Origin: an uncultured Spirochaetales bacterium
GTDB lineage: Bacteria > Spirochaetota > Spirochaetia > DSM-27196 > DATKUC01
Assembly (NCBI GenBank): GCA_964553615.1
Contig: CAZKMA010000009.1
Location: 17,864-81,863, forward strand
Reading direction: 5' to 3'
Length of the DNA stretch: 64,000 nt
The translations under genes and the position numbers were made by a program. The notes under the pieces are model-generated. The model was given only the letters and a program-made list of their open reading frames with translations, made no database searches and was not told the DNA's origin. Positions 28,579 to 35,285 of the stretch are shown one piece after another (position 1 is the stretch's first letter; every line of letters begins with the position of its first letter).

Positions 28579-29985
28579 TCAGACCGAGTACCGCGCCTTG
28601 CTCTTGCGAATACGCATCCGGGAGGCGCGAATCTCATCGCCATATGCGGCGAATACACCCGACAACCGGTCGAGCAGGTTCCCGAAACCAAACTCCCTGC
28701 GTGCAATGAGAAAATTCTCTTCCACCATGCGCTTCCGTTCTTCCGGATGCGTAAGCACGTATTCCATTGCCTCGAGAACATGGTCTTCGATTACGAGGCG
28801 ACCGTCTTCGTCGTACCGATCACGGATTTCTATGTTGTGCAGTCCGGTAACCGCTATGTCGGTCTTATAGACCAGGTAGGTGGTAATGACCACCGGCACG
28901 CGTGCCGCAAGAGCTTCGAGTAAAGCATTTCCGAACCCTTCCCAGATTGGAAGATAGGTTACGAGATCCGCGTTTGCCAGAACGTCGCGGTTGGTGTACA
29001 TCTTCTGTTCGCCTGCATCGCCCGTCGTGATTCCCCGGACGGAGCCGACGCGATCCGCAATGAAATGGGCGTTGACCCCAAGCTCCGCGGCGAGCTGTTT
29101 TATCTCTTCGACGTAGTTCTCGTCCGGTTCATCTCCCTGGTAAAGCGAGATAATGTAGTGCAAACGGTCGCGGTACTTCGGATACCGGTCCGCAAAACGA
29201 CCGACCAGACGCACCGAATCTTCAATGCGCTTTCTGCGAACTACACGCGTCGGCTGAACAATGAGAATGTCATCGCCGCGAAAGCCAAGATCCTTGCGAA
29301 AGGTCGAATTGTACTCGTCGAGTACGACCGGATCATCGAAATCCTCGCAGTTTGGTACAACGTGCGGCTGAACCCGCTTCAGCGAGCTCAGGATATGCGC
29401 CGCGTAGGAAGAGATGACAACATGCTCCAGGCCCAGATCCACCGGGGGCATAATGCGTGTAAGGAGTGATTCGATATGTGAGTTGCTGAACCTGCTGCGT
29501 TCCCACCAGAAGTCGTGGTGATGGAAGATTGTGGCAACCCGCTTCTCGGTTGCCAGGTGGTACAGACCAATGCCCCCGAGAAGGGTCATCGGCATTGCGT
29601 TCGTGTTCTCTCCAATCAGAACATCGATACCGTTGTCCTGGACGTATCGGTGGATCAGATCGCCCACCTCCTGCCCTGCTGCCATCATCTCCTCGACCAG
29701 TTCGTCCCGGGAGTTCTGATTGTCCCGCGGCGGAATACGCGACAGGAAGGGAAAGAAGCGGCGTTCATAAAGAATCTGCTGCTCGGAACCGAAGCGGATC
29801 CCGGGAACGAGGAATTGCTGACTTGCGGGAACATTCTCCACCGGGCTTCGATAGTAACCGGCAATGGTGTGAACCTGGTGCCCCATCTGGTTCAGAGCGG
29901 CAATCCACTTGTTCACTTCGAGAGATACACCGTCCACATCGCCCAGTTTTCCGCTGACGAATCCAATACGAAAGTTGTCTGCCAT
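28579..29985 (-). CDS. GT4 glycosyltransferase, mannosylglucosylglycerate synthase (MggS)-like
   Basis: DGVSLEVNKW, HHHDFWWER, QPTRVVRRKRIE, ADLVTYLPIWEGFGNALLEA, recalled as matching Thermotogae MggS. Confidence 0.8.
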   Translation of the reverse strand: MADNFRIGFVSGKLGDVDGVSLEVNKWIAALNQMGHQVHTIAGYYRSPVENVPASQQFLVPGIRFGSEQQILYERRFFPFLSRIPPRDNQNSRDELVEEMMAAGQEVGDLIHRYVQDNGIDVLIGENTNAMPMTLLGGIGLYHLATEKRVATIFHHHDFWWERSRFSNSHIESLLTRIMPPVDLGLEHVVISSYAAHILSSLKRVQPHVVPNCEDFDDPVVLDEYNSTFRKDLGFRGDDILIVQPTRVVRRKRIEDSVRLVGRFADRYPKYRDRLHYIISLYQGDEPDENYVEEIKQLAAELGVNAHFIADRVGSVRGITTGDAGEQKMYTNRDVLANADLVTYLPIWEGFGNALLEALAARVPVVITTYLVYKTDIAVTGLHNIEIRDRYDEDGRLVIEDHVLEAMEYVLTHPEERKRMVEENFLIARREFGFGNLLDRLSGVFAAYGDEIRASRMRIRKSKARYSV

Positions 29986-30045
29986 GGTACGTACCTCATA
30001 CACAAGATATGTCCATGGAGAAAGGGTTTCAACCGCGCGGAGTCG

Positions 30046-31932
30046 TTACCCGATCAACGCTTCCTCATAATCCTGAATCGAGCCGTTGTTCAGGCACACA
30101 TCGATGATCCTGCGGCCGACCGGATGAAGTTCGTCGGTATAGAATTGCCTCAACTCGCGATGGAAAAAATTCCGCAGGATCTCGGCGCCGGCGTCATAGC
30201 CGTCATTACCCACCTCGAGCTGTTCATTCACTCGAAGCATTCCCTTCGGGATGGTCTGGCCATCCACCCGAAGCGAAGGAAGGGCATACCCGAGCAGCGC
30301 AAGACGGGATTCCATGAGCTGTCCCGGGCGAAACCGAACACTCCCGCGACGGGCAATGTATTCGCGCGCAATCCACTCTGGTTTGAACCCCACTTTGAAG
30401 GCCCCGATGTACTGGTTGGGAATGAGCACAAACTTCGTGCTCGGCGTGGCGATAATCTGCTCGAGCAGGAGATTCGCCTGACGAACCATCTTCCCGGTTG
30501 CGAACGGCCAGTAGGAGCCGACCCCTTCGCTCACGAGTCCCTCGCCGGACACGATGCTCGGATTCGAATGACCGCGGGGAGCGACAAGTCGCCAGACCCA
30601 GCCGAGCGCAGGCGGCAGAATGTGCAGCATGCCAATGATGCCGTAGTTCGGTTCCTCTCGCGTACACGGAGGCGTACGGACTCCAAAACTCCGCACGTCG
30701 ACCTCGACCGGTCCGTCCAGGACGTTCGGTACGAAGTGGCGGGGCATGATTACTCGCGGATTCGGACATTTTTTCCCGGGTGCGTCCAGCGTGTGGTCCC
30801 AGATAAGCACGGTTGAACCGGGAACACCATCCAGGTTCAGGAAGATGAGCGGTTCCGGCGGTGATATGGTCAGCTTCTCGAGCTGCGGCTCGGTGCCGTA
30901 TTCTGCAAGGTGGTCAACGCGCAGAAACCAGCCCGCCTCGGCGTCTTCGACTACCAGTTTTCTGCTGTTGCGCTGAAGCGCCGGCGGTGCCAGCGCCATA
31001 TCGTCGGTAATCGGCTGCAGTTCACAGGTATCGTTCATTTCAATGAAGAGCTTTTCATTCGTAACTGTGTTCTCACCGAGCAGGATGCGTCCGTCCGTCT
31101 CCCGGTGGATTGCCTGCGTCATTTCACTCTTTCCGCCGCCACTTGCCCCTTCGTGGAGAATGACAAACTCGTTATCGTAGGGAGTAATCAGCTTCACTGC
31201 CGCGCTGTGCAGGGTAACCCATCCCTCCTGCTCACCAAGAGTCAGAAGGATGCCGTATACGCCCTTCTTGGCACTCGGACCGGGATAGAGGTTGTAGGAA
31301 AAGAGCTCGTGCATACCGGCCAGACGATTGTGAATGACCACCTGTTTTCCGTCAAAATGAGTGTGCCGGAACGGCGGGGCAACGTAGATGACCGCACGCG
31401 GCTCAAAACCGTCAGGAATATCGTCCCGGGGAATGAACCCCTGGAGGTCCGCCATGGCCGCCACGAAAAATCCTGCATTTGCCGGAGCAACAATGAGCGT
31501 CGGATAGCCATGCGTCATATCTCCGGAAAGAAACGGCATGACAATGAGGGGCTGCTCGGAAAGCCACTTGAAAGTTTCCGCGCGCACCGAGTCGAAGCCA
31601 TCACCGAACCGTTCGGTATACCGGGTCTTGTCGGTCGGCAGATCATCAGCAATGACCATAGCTTCGGGATCGCGCCGACGCATGTACACCTCGGTGTAGT
31701 TCACTGCAAAGCCATTCTTGCATCGTGCAACGGTCGCCTCGACAACCCGCCCCTTTCCGGACACTTCGTAGGCCACCTCGCAGCCGCTGCTCTCGGGATC
31801 CATGCAGACAAGATTCAGGAGATGATTGCGGCTTTCCGGTACGATAACTTCAGTCTGCGAGATGATCCGCTCGAGGTCTCGAGGAAGCTTGCACTTGTCC
31901 AGCACTATGTTGCCCAATAGCGTGTCCTTCAT
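30046..31932 (-). CDS. DUF4914 family protein (PEP-carboxykinase-like P-loop fold)
   Basis: YPGPSAKKGVYG, WVTLH, HEGASGGGKSE, ITDD, CPNPRV. Confidence 0.8.
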   Translation of the reverse strand: MKDTLLGNIVLDKCKLPRDLERIISQTEVIVPESRNHLLNLVCMDPESSGCEVAYEVSGKGRVVEATVARCKNGFAVNYTEVYMRRRDPEAMVIADDLPTDKTRYTERFGDGFDSVRAETFKWLSEQPLIVMPFLSGDMTHGYPTLIVAPANAGFFVAAMADLQGFIPRDDIPDGFEPRAVIYVAPPFRHTHFDGKQVVIHNRLAGMHELFSYNLYPGPSAKKGVYGILLTLGEQEGWVTLHSAAVKLITPYDNEFVILHEGASGGGKSEMTQAIHRETDGRILLGENTVTNEKLFIEMNDTCELQPITDDMALAPPALQRNSRKLVVEDAEAGWFLRVDHLAEYGTEPQLEKLTISPPEPLIFLNLDGVPGSTVLIWDHTLDAPGKKCPNPRVIMPRHFVPNVLDGPVEVDVRSFGVRTPPCTREEPNYGIIGMLHILPPALGWVWRLVAPRGHSNPSIVSGEGLVSEGVGSYWPFATGKMVRQANLLLEQIIATPSTKFVLIPNQYIGAFKVGFKPEWIAREYIARRGSVRFRPGQLMESRLALLGYALPSLRVDGQTIPKGMLRVNEQLEVGNDGYDAGAEILRNFFHRELRQFYTDELHPVGRRIIDVCLNNGSIQDYEEALIG

Positions 31933-32152
31933 TTCCGGTTATTCTCCATGAATACTCTAAACGCCCACGCAATTCAACCCCGCCTGCGCCCGGTACTCGC
32001 GTCGTTGTCTGGAGACAAATCGAAATCTGTTGCCGAGCGGACGACCGGATCCACAGACAGGGAGAAGTACCATCAGGTACCGATTTCGAAAACCGTTGCC
32101 TTTGGCATCTTTTCCGTCTGCATTTCATACATCGAAGTGTATCTTTATGCAG

Positions 32153-32169
32153 GAAATTCCGGGAATTTC
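32153..32169. promoter_or_regulatory. Perfect inverted repeat GAAATTCC-G-GGAATTTC upstream of the DUF4914 operon
   Basis: Read directly. A second palindrome, TTGTCT-GG-AGACAA, lies near 32003-32016. Confidence 0.35.
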
Positions 32170-32274
32170 GGCTGATTATACGCGATATCTGAAAAAACAT
32201 GCAACAGGTCGCCGGGACGAGGCCCGGGAGACGCACCTGGGAAGGCCCTTGAGGGAAGCCCCTGTGGGAGGCAC

Positions 32275-33225
32275 CTAGGGGCCCGCGGCACCCGCGAGGA
32301 GAGTCTTCGCCATAGTCTCCAGGTTGGAGAGCACGTCCGGGGCAAGGGGGTTGATGACCAGCATCCTGACGCCGAGCGCCTCGGCAATCCGTTTGGCGGT
32401 TGTCTCTGAAAACTCGGGTTCCACGAACACAGCACGTACATGCGCTGCACGCGCGCGCCGGATAAGGTCCTGCATTTCACGGGGCCCCGGATTCTTGCCG
32501 TTTTGTTCAATGGCAAGTTCTTCTATTCCGTAGGTGTCGGTAAAATACCCAAATGCGGGGTGAAACACCAGAATGGAGGAGCCACGAAGCGGCGCAAGCA
32601 TGACCTTGAGCCGGCCATCCAGTGCGTGCAGCCGCGCCACGAGTGCATTGTAGTTCGCCGTGAACGTATCCGCCATTCCGGGAACCTCCGAAACCAGTGC
32701 GTCCCGGATCGTCTTCATCTGGATAGCGAGCTCTCGCGGTCCGAGCCAGATGTGCGGATCGAACCCTTCGACCGCCGGTGAGTTTGCAGTCACGACCATG
32801 TGCTGTCTTCCGTCGGGCGAACGGAGTGTCACTCCCACGCGCGTGTCAACAACCCGGAGATCGGGCACATTCGCCTCCACCCTGGGGAGAAATGCGTCTT
32901 CAAACGGCATGCCGATGCGGAAGTAAAGCCGGGCGTGCGCAACTTCGCTTATCTGCCGCGGAGTCGGCTCGTACGTGTGCGGTTCCCTTCCCGGCGGTAC
33001 CATGACCCCGACCCGCACACCGGTGCCTCCGATCTGGCTTACAAGGTACTCCTGCGGAAGAATACTCACCATCACATTGAGCGGCTGCACCGTCCCACCG
33101 GGGCCGGAAGTGGTATCTCGCTTTCCTCCGGTTCGCTCGGCCGAACCGCCCGCGCAGGCAGCGCCCGCAACTGCAACAAACAGGATAATGCCCGCCGTTA
33201 ATACTCGACCCTTCGCTCGAATCAC
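32275..33225 (-). CDS. znuA: Zn/Mn ABC transporter substrate-binding lipoprotein
   Basis: Lipobox AGAAC, PPGREPHTYEP, DPHIWL, VFHPAFGYF, EQNGKNP. Confidence 0.9.
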   Translation of the reverse strand: MIRAKGRVLTAGIILFVAVAGAACAGGSAERTGGKRDTTSGPGGTVQPLNVMVSILPQEYLVSQIGGTGVRVGVMVPPGREPHTYEPTPRQISEVAHARLYFRIGMPFEDAFLPRVEANVPDLRVVDTRVGVTLRSPDGRQHMVVTANSPAVEGFDPHIWLGPRELAIQMKTIRDALVSEVPGMADTFTANYNALVARLHALDGRLKVMLAPLRGSSILVFHPAFGYFTDTYGIEELAIEQNGKNPGPREMQDLIRRARAAHVRAVFVEPEFSETTAKRIAEALGVRMLVINPLAPDVLSNLETMAKTLLAGAAGP

Positions 33226-33314: not shown

Positions 33315-33584
33315 ATGGCAAAGAAAGATGAGGTAATTACGTTCAAGGTAGATGATGCGCTTGCACGTGAACTCGCCGGAATCTCGAACCGATCGGAGTT
33401 CATCCGGGCGGCTATTCTGCGCGCCCTGGAAAACACGTGCCCGTTGTGCGGCGGAGTCGGTATTCTTACCCCGGACCAGAAACGGCATTGGGAAAGTTTC
33501 GCTGAACATCACAGCGTCCAGAAATGCAACGACTGCGAAGCGAATTATCTGGTCTGCGACGCCGGAAATGAAGGAGAAACCTGA
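33315..33584 (+). CDS. Ribbon-helix-helix (CopG/MetJ-like) regulator with a Cys/His-rich C-terminal domain
   Basis: VITFKVDDALARELAGISNRSEFIRAAILRAL (RHH pattern) followed by CPLC-x15-H-x6-HH-x4-CNDC-x6-C. Stop overlaps the znuC start. Confidence 0.85.
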   Translation: MAKKDEVITFKVDDALARELAGISNRSEFIRAAILRALENTCPLCGGVGILTPDQKRHWESFAEHHSVQKCNDCEANYLVCDAGNEGET

Positions 33585-34363
33585 TGAATGAACCGGTGGC
33601 GGCCATCAGCTTCGACTCGGTGAGTTTCAGATACCCGGAGATTTCCGTTCTGGAAAATGCAACGTTCGAAATTGCACCGAGGGACTTCGTCTCAATAATC
33701 GGGCCGAACGGCGGCGGAAAGACCACGCTCGCGCGGCTCATCCTCGGGCTCGTAGAACCCGCTTCAGGAACCATACGGGTCTTCGGCAAGTCACCGCAGG
33801 CGGCCCGTCATAAGATTGGCTACGTTCCGCAGTACACCTCCTTCGATCTGAGTTTTCCCGTGACCATCCGGGATGTCGTGCTCATGGGGCGTGTCCGGAA
33901 TCGACCCGGACTTCATCGCCGTGCCGATTTCGAGGCTGCCGAGCAGGCGCTGTCGGAAGTGGGCATGGTCGATCTTCGCAATCGACCGTTCTCTGAGCTC
34001 TCCGGTGGACAACGGCAGCGGGTACTCATTGCACGGGCGCTTTCAGCCGGCCCGGAAATTCTCCTGCTGGATGAGCCGACGGCAAACGTGGACGTCGCGG
34101 TGGAAAACCAGGTCAACGGCCTGCTCAGAAGGCTCAATGAGACGCTCACAGTGCTCCTCATCACGCACGATCTCGGATTCGTCAGTGAGCTGGTGAATCG
34201 CCTGGTGTGTGTGAATCACTACGTGAAGGTACATCCGACAACCGAGGTAACTCCTGAGATGATCAAGGAGCTGTACGGCGGCCATGTGCTCCGCGTAGAA
34301 CACGGGAAAGGCGACCCGCGTACAATAGACGTCCGCAACGTCCCCTCCCCATCAACCAAATAA
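33584..34363 (+). CDS. znuC: Zn/Mn ABC transporter ATP-binding protein
   Basis: GPNGGGKT, GYVPQ, LSGGQRQR, LLLDEP, ITHD. Confidence 0.92.
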   Translation: MNEPVAAISFDSVSFRYPEISVLENATFEIAPRDFVSIIGPNGGGKTTLARLILGLVEPASGTIRVFGKSPQAARHKIGYVPQYTSFDLSFPVTIRDVVLMGRVRNRPGLHRRADFEAAEQALSEVGMVDLRNRPFSELSGGQRQRVLIARALSAGPEILLLDEPTANVDVAVENQVNGLLRRLNETLTVLLITHDLGFVSELVNRLVCVNHYVKVHPTTEVTPEMIKELYGGHVLRVEHGKGDPRTIDVRNVPSPSTK

Positions 34364-34376
34364 GGACAGGACATCT

Positions 34377-35285
34377 ATGGGCCAGTTTTTTTCCGCGCTC
34401 TCCGATCCCTCGATACCCTTCATCCGGTATGCACTGTTCGCAGGGCTTATCTCCAGCGTCGCCTTCGGTGTCATCGGAAGCTACGTCGTTGTAAAACGGA
34501 TCAGCTACATCGCCGGTGCCATCTCGCATTCGGTTCTGGCCGGCATCGGACTGAGTCTCTACCTGAAGAGCCGCTACGGTCTTGCCTGGTTCAGCCCCAT
34601 GCTCGGGGCCGTCATCACCGCGGTTCTCGCTGCGGTCATCATCGGCTCGGTCAGCATATATGCCCGGGAACGGGAAGACACGGTCATCGGCGCCATCTGG
34701 AGCCTCGGGATGGCCGTGGGGGTGCTCTTCATCGCCGGGACAAAGGGGTTCGTTGACCCGATGAGCTACCTGTTCGGGAACATACTATTGGTTACGAAAG
34801 GCGATCTTCTGCTCATTGCCGTTCTCGATGGTATCGTCGTTCTCATCGGTATCCTGTTCTACAACCAGCTCCTGGCCGTCACCTTCGACGAGGAGTTTAC
34901 CACCGCGCGCGGCGTTCCTTCCGGCTTTTACTACATGCTGCTGCTCATTCTCGCCGCCCTCGCTATCGTGCTTCTGGTAACCATTGTGGGAATTGTCATG
35001 CTCATTGCGCTTTTTACCATCCCGGCGGCAATTTCCGGCATGTTTGCACGCCGCCTGTGGCAGATGATGATTGCATCGACACTGCTGACCATGGTTTTCA
35101 CCACGGCCGGGCTCGGGCTGAGCTATCTCACCAACATGCCGAGCGGGTCGGTCATCATCGTCTTCGCCGGCTCCGCCTATCTCCTTGCCACGGTGGCGAA
35201 AAACGTCTCACGCCGGATCCGCGCACGAAGCCAGGGAAACCGGCACGATGGTGGGCAGCGCGGTGCGCGCACTGAAGCAATCTGA
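34377..35285 (+). CDS. znuB: Zn/Mn ABC transporter permease
   Basis: AGAISHSVLAGI, REDTVIG, SYLFGNILLV, TFDEEF, VGIVMLIAL. Confidence 0.92.
   Translation: MGQFFSALSDPSIPFIRYALFAGLISSVAFGVIGSYVVVKRISYIAGAISHSVLAGIGLSLYLKSRYGLAWFSPMLGAVITAVLAAVIIGSVSIYAREREDTVIGAIWSLGMAVGVLFIAGTKGFVDPMSYLFGNILLVTKGDLLLIAVLDGIVVLIGILFYNQLLAVTFDEEFTTARGVPSGFYYMLLLILAALAIVLLVTIVGIVMLIALFTIPAAISGMFARRLWQMMIASTLLTMVFTTAGLGLSYLTNMPSGSVIIVFAGSAYLLATVAKNVSRRIRARSQGNRHDGGQRGARTEAI

Follow-up and report, generated by a model that had tools for sequence, protein, structure and literature searches.

What does a protein of the DUF4914 family, a family unstudied in the public literature, do in a spirochaete? The question is raised by a gene on contig CAZKMA010000009.1 of an uncultured Spirochaetales bacterium (GenBank assembly GCA_964553615.1). 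We analysed a stretch of 64,000 nucleotides (nt) of this contig (positions 17,864 to 81,863 of the forward strand), which we call the window and within which positions are counted. The DUF4914 gene occupies positions 30046-31932 on the minus strand. It is a single, intact open reading frame (ORF) translated to 628 amino acids (aa), with a GGAGA ribosome-binding site 13 nt 5' of its ATG. Its product, assigned by PF16260, AlphaFold2 (AF2) and Foldseek, is a two-domain protein of the phosphoenolpyruvate carboxykinase (PEPCK) fold, and is very probably an active enzyme of PEPCK mechanism that depends on a nucleoside triphosphate (NTP) and a metal. Glycolysis, gluconeogenesis and the tricarboxylic acid cycle meet at PEPCK, of which three classes are known, the ATP, GTP and pyrophosphate (PPi) classes. 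A preliminary description of the locus had predicted an active enzyme of this fold, either a carboxykinase or a small-molecule kinase. The prediction is supported by the fold, the profile alignments and the residue conservation.

The window protein matches PF16260 at 1050 bits (E=0; cut-off 25.7 bits) over positions 1-610 of the 612 of the hidden Markov model (HMM), and it is thus a full-length DUF4914 protein. Proteins annotated as DUF4914 family protein, that of Salinispira pacifica among them, are 80-86% identical to it. PF16260 was its only match at E <= 0.1, and PF01293, PF00821 and PF17297 gave no match above the gathering score; one DUF4914 homologue (P0080) has a precomputed PF01293 match. 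No NCBIfam model matches the window protein. Sequence searches of the PDB, with the single protein or with a 52-sequence profile, returned nothing relevant to DUF4914. The link to PEPCK is seen only by structure prediction with Foldseek and by hhalign with diversified profiles.

The AF2 model was built on 52 homologues. It has a mean predicted local distance difference test (pLDDT) of 87.3 and a predicted TM score (pTM) of 0.88, and it is disordered only at the N-terminus, at the P-loop tip (residues 263-266) and in the loop 452-464. In a Foldseek search against the PDB, each of the top 50 matches was a PEPCK, and the three types, ATP, GTP and PPi, were all among them (probability 1.00, E 1e-22 to 3e-20). 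The ATP-PEPCKs of Escherichia coli, Thermus and Actinobacillus were matched at E 1e-22 to 1e-20 with a target-normalised TM score of 0.72-0.76, the GTP-PEPCKs of rat, chicken and Mycobacterium tuberculosis at E about 4e-21, and the PPi-PEPCK of Propionibacterium (8E1U) at E 5.6e-21 with a query-normalised TM score of 0.67. With about 620-700 columns, the alignments take in both PEPCK domains. The top 50 did not include HPr kinase (HprK), which the preliminary description had proposed for comparison along with PEPCK.

We also compared profiles with hhalign, after diversifying that of DUF4914 with nine distant members (30-55% identity) from an exhaustive search of representatives. It aligned end to end with ATP-PEPCK (E. 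coli K-12 PckA and three spirochaete PckA; probability 93%, E 3.5e-7) and with five spirochaete GTP-PEPCKs (probability 95.5%, E 1.6e-8). As a yardstick, ATP-PEPCK aligned by the same method with GTP-PEPCK gave a probability of 92.8% and E 4e-7. Thus, DUF4914 is as near to each PEPCK class as the ATP and GTP classes are to each other. Against one PckA sequence alone, DUF4914 aligned weakly (E 4e-4, probability 34%). Judged from the profiles and the predicted model, the resemblance to PEPCK lies far beyond chance, and on the profiles DUF4914 makes up a separate sequence class within the PEPCK superfamily.

The best structural match is ATP-PEPCK (PckA, EC 4.1.1.49; 1AQ2, 1OEN and 2PXZ of E. coli, 1J3B and 1XKV of T. 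thermophilus, 1YLH of A. succinogenes). DUF4914 has the same order of R-loop Arg, Y...KK, Mn-binding His, GxSGxGK[ST], DD, E-G-G...K/R and N-x-R, and its P-loop is spelled as in the ATP type. However, it is about 15% identical to ATP-PEPCK and about 90 residues longer, with an insertion of 24-28 residues, DDMAL in place of DDEHGW and R338 in place of K288; it is also far more conserved across phyla and has its own gene context, operons of MpsC and an RNA element with PurK and PurE. With GTP-PEPCK (EC 4.1.1.32; rat cytosolic, chicken mitochondrial and M. tuberculosis enzymes) it has in common a similar length, about 600-620 aa. The two differ in the P-loop, GASGGGKS in DUF4914 against the shorter PSACGKT of the aligned GTP-PEPCKs; the guanine-binding Phe/Asn cluster was not identified in DUF4914, there is no PF00821 match, and DUF4914 is found alongside GTP-PEPCK in 17 of 31 spirochaete genomes. 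The preliminary description had likened the motifs to those of GTP-PEPCK. Their pairing held in hhalign (AKKG/GKKC, LHSA/EHML, SGGGKS/SACGKT, ITDDMA/IGDDIA and PNPR/PNAR), but the likeness is not GTP-specific: ATP-PEPCK is equally distant, and the P-loop GxSGxGKS is nearer to the ATP type. The PPi-PEPCK of Propionibacterium freudenreichii (8E1U) has the common PEPCK core and is a precedent for a third, sequence-divergent class with another phosphoryl donor. That enzyme, in contrast to DUF4914, has about 1126 residues with large extra domains, and the Lys and Ser of the DUF4914 P-loop are of the NTP type.

We counted residue conservation over 61 DUF4914 members, including members at 30-42% identity. 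In PckA, K213, H232 and D269 are Mn ligands, K254 and T255 belong to the P-loop, and R65, Y207 and R333 contact PEP, oxaloacetate and CO2. It turned out that the PEPCK residues of the metal site, the P-loop, the kinase-2 motif and the PEP/oxaloacetate/CO2 contacts all have DUF4914 counterparts that are either invariant or shared by 60/61 members, down to 30% identity. Y216, K222, K223, S264, K268, D310, D311, N391 and R393 are invariant in 61/61, and H242 is kept in 60/61. The Lys-His-Asp set of Mn2+ ligands of PckA is matched in the alignment by K223, H242 and D311. The five motifs of the preliminary description were found in the order it had given, SAKKGVYG at residues 220-227, WVTLHSA at 238-244, GASGGGKS at 262-269, ITDDMAL at 308-314 and CPNPRV at 389-394. 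Contacts beyond its list are kept as well, namely R87, Y216, E332/G334/R338 and N391, which correspond to PEP/oxaloacetate/CO2 and phosphate contacts.

The hhalign counterparts can be followed along the protein; all positions are on the minus strand. R85-R86-R87-D88-P89 (31666-31680) is the counterpart of the PEPCK R-loop, and R87 corresponds to PckA R65 and also aligns with the arginine of the GTP-PEPCK VAR motif, which binds PEP, oxaloacetate and CO2. R85 and R87 are invariant in 61/61 and R86 is variable; a weaker first alignment had put R86 on R65, and the better alignments pair R87-D-P with R65-S-P. The segment Y216-P-G-P-S-A-K222-K223-G-V-Y-G (31252-31287) contains SAKKGVYG. In it Y216 corresponds to PckA Y207 and K222/K223 to K212/K213, with the Mn-binding lysine, and G218 is likewise present in 61/61. 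In WVTLHSA (31201-31221), H242 corresponds to the Mn-binding histidine H232. In the P-loop GASGGGKS (31126-31149), S264/K268/S269 correspond to PckA S250/K254/T255; S264, G265 and K268 are invariant, position 269 is S or T, and the low pLDDT of residues 263-266 is as expected for a flexible loop.

After the P-loop helix and before the kinase-2 strand, DUF4914 has an insertion specific to the family and about 24-28 residues long (about 280-303; 31024-31095), seen as a gap in the GTP-PEPCK alignment and absent from ATP- and GTP-PEPCK. In the kinase-2 motif ITDDMAL (30991-31011), D310/D311 correspond to PckA D268/D269 and to the GDD of GTP-PEPCK, where the D311-equivalent binds Mn. The preliminary description had taken this motif for the kinase-2 DD, and its invariance in 61/61 and its pairing with IGDDIA of GTP-PEPCK bear this out. 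The hhalign comparison with PckA had put LIGDD on LLGEN (283-288). This placement was ruled out, since E287 and N288 vary, D310/D311 are invariant and the GTP-PEPCK alignment pairs D310/D311; it arose because of the insertion after the P-loop helix. E332-A-G334-W-F-L-R338 (30919-30939) corresponds to PckA E282-G-G284-C-Y-A-K288, a region of nucleotide-phosphate contact. E332 and G334 are invariant, and R338 is kept in 60/61 members. CPNPRV (30751-30768) brings N391/R393, the counterparts of PckA N331/R333 and of the oxaloacetate/PEP-binding PNxR of GTP-PEPCK. Thus, the counterparts of PckA R65, Y207, N331 and R333, namely R87, Y216, N391 and R393, are all aligned and invariant in 61/61, which leaves little room for a very different substrate. 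Finally, the loop P452-R-G-H-S-N-P-S...E469-G-V-G-S-Y-W-P-F477 (30502-30579) has a pLDDT < 50 at 452-464, and its residues R453, N457, S459 and E469 are kept in 60/61 members and F477 in 61/61. This conserved loop is a candidate mobile active-site lid, which may be equivalent to the lid of PEPCK.

These counterparts suggest how the enzyme could work. S264, K268 and S269 of the P-loop together with R338 would hold the nucleotide phosphates, K223, H242 and D311 would hold the catalytic Mn2+, and R87, Y216, N391 and R393 would bind CO2 together with a 2-oxo/enol carboxylic acid. Oxaloacetate and NTP would be interconverted with PEP, CO2 and NDP, or a very close analogue would undergo the same reaction. 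We give slightly better than an even chance to DUF4914 being an NTP/Mn-dependent carboxykinase with PEP/oxaloacetate and CO2 as substrates; that it performs this chemistry on a close analogue of PEP/oxaloacetate seems unlikely, yet deserves to be taken seriously. What the analysis shows is the fold, the conserved residues and the gene contexts; substrate, direction and nucleotide are what we infer.

At least 8000 database matches were obtained for the family; the best 120, from Spirochaetota and Clostridia, are all 64-90% identical to the query. Relatives are encoded in at least 597 candidate stretches of species-representative genomes (597 of the 600 listed). The proteins of Bacteroidota, Thermotogota and Planctomycetota are about 60% identical to the query, and the identity between phyla is about 60-65%. 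Among 1.8 billion representatives at 50% identity there were 652 DUF4914 matches, mostly fragments. DUF4914 is carried by 31 of the 201 Spirochaetota and 8 of the 200 Clostridia that were sampled, and by Thermotoga maritima. Going by these identities, purifying selection on the family is unusually strong.

We clustered the neighbouring ORFs around 80 DUF4914 genome loci. A gene of the MpsC family (PF10057) encoding about 120 aa lies directly upstream of DUF4914 on the same strand in 25 of the 80 loci. In 21 a neighbouring gene encodes a PurE (PF00731) that bears SAHR and AAHLPGM, the signatures of class I, and some of these purE genes lie within purE-purM-purN-purD operons. A DUF3360 membrane protein is encoded directly downstream in 11; we found no paper on DUF3360, and the single literature match for DUF2294 was irrelevant. 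In spirochaetes the contexts included PurE-DUF4914-beta-carbonic anhydrase, DUF4914-PurE, MpsC-DUF4914-MFS-aspartate kinase, DUF4914-MFS and DUF4914-HAD phosphatase-GDPD.

The spacer that follows mpsC contains a conserved RNA element, GGAAGAC...AAGTTGTAAGTAAGCC, leading into an intrinsic terminator. RNAalifold supported a terminator stem of 14 bp with compensatory changes at 9 of the 14 pairs. The element is found at L026:8541-8613, L035:2728-2808, L038:9728-9814 and L058:9309-9394 and at about 20 others (alignment A2), in two sequence subtypes, one Clostridia-like and one Sphaerochaeta-like. Rfam found no known riboswitch upstream of DUF4914 in 14 loci, and the element is not in Rfam. With a covariance model of the element (R1), copies were detected in 19 of 25 DUF4914-bearing genomes, including those in the 466-nt gap between purD and DUF4914 of Lachnospiraceae without an adjacent mpsC. 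Of 200 Clostridia sampled without bias, 5 carry the RNA, and 4 of these belong to the 8 that are DUF4914-positive (Fisher p = 5e-6).

The genes that follow the RNA are DUF4914, PurE-DUF4914, PurE-PurC-DUF4914, PurK or a stand-alone DUF3360. In one genome the RNA stands before the gene of an archaeal-type PEP carboxylase (PF14010, E 8e-107), behind which PurE is encoded. This copy of the RNA is at L110 (G222:C48:15434-15521, minus strand), a second PurE copy is at G222:C48:12990-13415, and PurE-MpsC-RNA-DUF4914 stands elsewhere in the same genome. Complete operons read MpsC-RNA-(165-aa unknown)-adenylate kinase-MpsC-DUF4914-PurK-PurE-DUF3360 and MpsC-RNA-(165-aa unknown)-DUF4914-PurK-PurE-MFS. 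In six genomes a second PurE, often with PurK, stands under the RNA beside the housekeeping copy, and in four genomes the DUF4914-linked PurE is the sole PurE.

Two further observations concern these operons. A protein of about 160-208 aa with no Pfam match (YFNDEGYxDxWRIP, FYNYC) is encoded between MpsC-RNA and DUF4914 in four unrelated genomes (L058:9375-10001, L011:3300-3791, L137:1829-2311 and L138:11047-11556, the last on the minus strand), and may be a further member of the DUF4914 operon. A second good R1 match (E 2.4e-9), at L138:4669 (G373:C22:133668-133754, minus strand), shares its contig with the DUF4914 operon and is followed by an ORF of 876 aa that, judged by its sequence alone, resembles a P-type cation ATPase. 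Either the regulon extends to ion transport or the match is merely a similar terminator.

In E. coli, PurK is needed only at low CO2. In Staphylococcus aureus, mpsAB encodes a bicarbonate transporter that is repressed by 5% CO2, and mpsC lies behind a weak terminator (PMC6689103). Together with the gene contexts, this points to an inducible, inorganic-carbon-dependent gene set with DUF4914 at its core. The gene that precedes DUF4914 is of the same family (PF10057) as the one behind mpsAB; in contrast to the MpsABC/DAB system, no MpsA or MpsB is linked to DUF4914. To our knowledge, the function of MpsC is not known, and an mpsC deletion in S. aureus has no phenotype. The RNA element is probably an attenuator whose protein partner is MpsC, and we infer that the signal of the MpsC-RNA operons is CO2 or bicarbonate. 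In many Bacillota and some Spirochaetota, DUF4914 would then be the core of an operon switched by mpsC and the terminator-forming leader RNA. The partners PurK, PurE, PurC, beta-carbonic anhydrase, archaeal-type PEP carboxylase and transporters suggest a role in using or supplying inorganic carbon, which is probably played when CO2 is scarce.

We then asked whether DUF4914 occurs where other enzymes of this metabolic junction are missing. Among 31 DUF4914-positive Spirochaetota, none has ATP-PEPCK, 17 have GTP-PEPCK and 14 have neither; among 170 DUF4914-negative ones the numbers are 47, 91 and 32. Among 28 DUF4914-positive Bacillota, 3 have ATP-PEPCK, 7-8 have GTP-PEPCK and 17 have neither. 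The rate of GTP-PEPCK in Spirochaetota is the same with and without DUF4914. The difference in ATP-PEPCK (p = 1.5e-4) is due to a few ATP-PEPCK-rich families, and the spirochaete pattern of never occurring with ATP-PEPCK fails in Bacillota (3/28). Thus, DUF4914 as a simple replacement of PEPCK is not supported, since it coexists with GTP-PEPCK in spirochaetes and with ATP-PEPCK in Bacillota. Ten of the 14 PEPCK-less spirochaete carriers have a PEP carboxylase (PEPC), an archaeal-type PEPC or a PYC/OAD-type carboxyltransferase. In the remaining genomes, G016 and G031 (both complete), G040 and G129, none of five known C3-carboxylating families was found. Thermotoga maritima has DUF4914 and a PYC/OAD-type carboxyltransferase, and gave no match for PEPCK_ATP, PEPCK_GTP, PEPcase and PEPcase_2.

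The genome of the window (4.49 Mb, 98.5% complete) has no ATP-PEPCK, no GTP-PEPCK and no PYC/OAD-type carboxyltransferase. It has a bacterial PEPC and, on other contigs, a beta-carbonic anhydrase and a purK-purE pair. Having PEPC but no canonical PEPCK, it is left with DUF4914 as its sole PEPCK-fold enzyme. Neither MpsC (tblastn with five queries) nor DUF3360 nor, genome-wide, the R1 element was found in it.

A third PEPCK-like family was observed in the course of these searches. Its ORFs of about 560-600 aa match PF01293 weakly (E 1e-12 to 1e-19, HMM positions about 70-441) and are distinct from both DUF4914 and genuine PckA. They occur in 14 of the 28 DUF4914-bearing Bacillota (G201:C240:66305-67462, G202:C1:363062-364222, G203:C37:33418-34572 and 11 more) and in five spirochaete genomes (G021, G032, G059, G119 and G196).

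With a confidence slightly short of even, we propose that DUF4914 is both a fourth sequence class of PEPCK and the core of a previously undescribed low-CO2 response. The class would be spread over anaerobic Bacillota, Spirochaetota, Thermotogota, Bacteroidota and Planctomycetota, and in the window spirochaete, G016 and G031 it would be the sole PEPCK-fold enzyme or the sole C3-carboxylating enzyme of the five families searched. In the proposed response, the MpsC protein and the leader RNA would turn on DUF4914, PurK/PurE, carbonic anhydrase, PEP carboxylase and transporters. Several points speak against DUF4914 being a PEP/oxaloacetate carboxykinase. The predicted active-site geometry derives from alignments. 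We found no paper with "DUF4914" or "PF16260", and the PEPCK activity is a prediction. In the window genome no CO2-linked partner adjoins DUF4914, and the RNA/MpsC system is absent. That spirochaete carriers lack canonical PEPCK more often than non-carriers (14 of 31 versus 32 of 170, p = 0.004) speaks for this reading, but the statistic ignores shared ancestry. The coexistence with canonical PEPCKs indicates that DUF4914 is not simply isofunctional and redundant. In addition, its much stronger constraint than that of PEPCKs, its insertion and the many invariant motifs peculiar to the family hint at more than ordinary PEPCK chemistry, such as another substrate, a partner protein or regulation.

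These points lead to an alternative that we hold to be unlikely, though of real weight. A PEPCK-fold carboxykinase could act on another 2-oxo/enol acid, or on an organic acid imported by the linked DUF3360 or MFS protein, by the same metal-assisted decarboxylation and phosphoryl transfer. It would explain why a canonical GTP- or ATP-PEPCK coexists in many genomes, and it agrees with the extreme family-specific conservation, the unique insertion and the recurrent transporters (DUF3360 at the 11 loci given above, MFS in G016, G031, G055, G143 and G373). A HAD phosphatase neighbour in one spirochaete genus fits as well. However, the equivalents of PckA R65, Y207, N331 and R333 are all invariant, and the contexts yield no candidate substrate.

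Quite improbable is a non-carboxylating small-molecule kinase, for example of glycerate or another hydroxy acid, although a 2-hydroxy/2-oxo acid site could chelate Mn likewise. Such a kinase would feed a compatible-solute pathway through the neighbour of DUF4914 in the window, a GT4 glycosyltransferase (28579-30003, minus strand; PF00534) related to mannosylglucosylglycerate synthase (MggS). This gene follows DUF4914 about 60 nt downstream on the same strand; its true start is probably ATG 29985 rather than GTG 30003. The pair is kept, in the order DUF4914-GT4-Lgt-FapA-ParA, in relatives at 82-86% identity. However, GT4 is absent from all 80 loci of other lineages, including spirochaetes such as those of L006 and L008 in which DUF4914 is near Lgt. 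Being kept only in the closest relatives, GT4 is a lineage-specific neighbour that gives no family-wide clue, and we rejected it as a functional partner. It aligns end to end with the MggS model NF041101 at 231 bits, far under the equivalog cut-off of 640 bits. The partners of the family as a whole are enzymes of CO2 and bicarbonate, not of sugars or glycerate. The contexts with PurK, PurE, beta-carbonic anhydrase, PEP carboxylase and the MpsC-linked RNA favour a carboxykinase over a plain small-molecule kinase.

The adjoining class I PurE, sometimes within purE-purM-purN-purD operons, would also suit a protein that stands in for PurK (N5-CAIR synthetase) without being homologous to it and furnishes PurE with its substrate. 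We give this hardly any credence. Genuine PurK (PF02222 and PF17769) is co-operonic with DUF4914 in L011, L017, G304 and G373, which effectively refutes it; moreover, the window genome has its own purK-purE, and the conserved PEP/oxaloacetate contacts would have no role in the carboxylation of aminoimidazole ribonucleotide. An HprK-like protein kinase/phosphorylase, suggested by the P-loop-bearing C-terminal domain architecture that HprK/P and PEPCK are established to have in common, is scarcely conceivable given the match to PEPCK over both domains, the lack of HprK among the top 50 structural matches, and the retained arginine of the PEPCK N-terminal domain and Mn ligands.

New here are the equidistance yardstick, the rejection of the PurK role, the tabulation of gap filling across genomes and the lineage-specific status of the GT4 neighbour. 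If DUF4914 is a fourth class of PEPCK, it would fill gaps in metabolic reconstructions. The family occurs in hundreds of species, with matches in at least 597 species-representative genomes; of the complete genomes analysed, several show no PEPCK, or no known way of making oxaloacetate from C3 compounds. It would also offer a biochemical handle on CO2 scarcity in heterotrophic anaerobes, and its close association with MpsC and with a leader RNA that is conserved points to an unstudied circuit of inorganic-carbon regulation. DUF4914 is a soluble, single-chain enzyme with a homologue in the tractable and well-studied Thermotoga maritima, which is convenient for tests of function.

Some features of the locus remain to be described. 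The spacer of 342 nt between znuA and DUF4914 (31933-32274, minus strand) has no strong promoter or terminator consensus and no match to R1, and the Rfam scan of the window was empty. The GT4 gene may serve compatible-solute synthesis in this relative of the halophile Salinispira. On the other side of the spacer, znuA (32275-33225, minus strand) is divergent from an ORF of 89 aa (33315-33584, plus strand), which stands just upstream of genes for a znuC-like ABC ATPase (33584-34363) and an ABC-3 permease (34377-35285). The product of this ORF has a ribbon-helix-helix-like N-terminus and a Cys-rich tail (CPLC...CNDC), and may regulate the genes for zinc uptake in response to metal.

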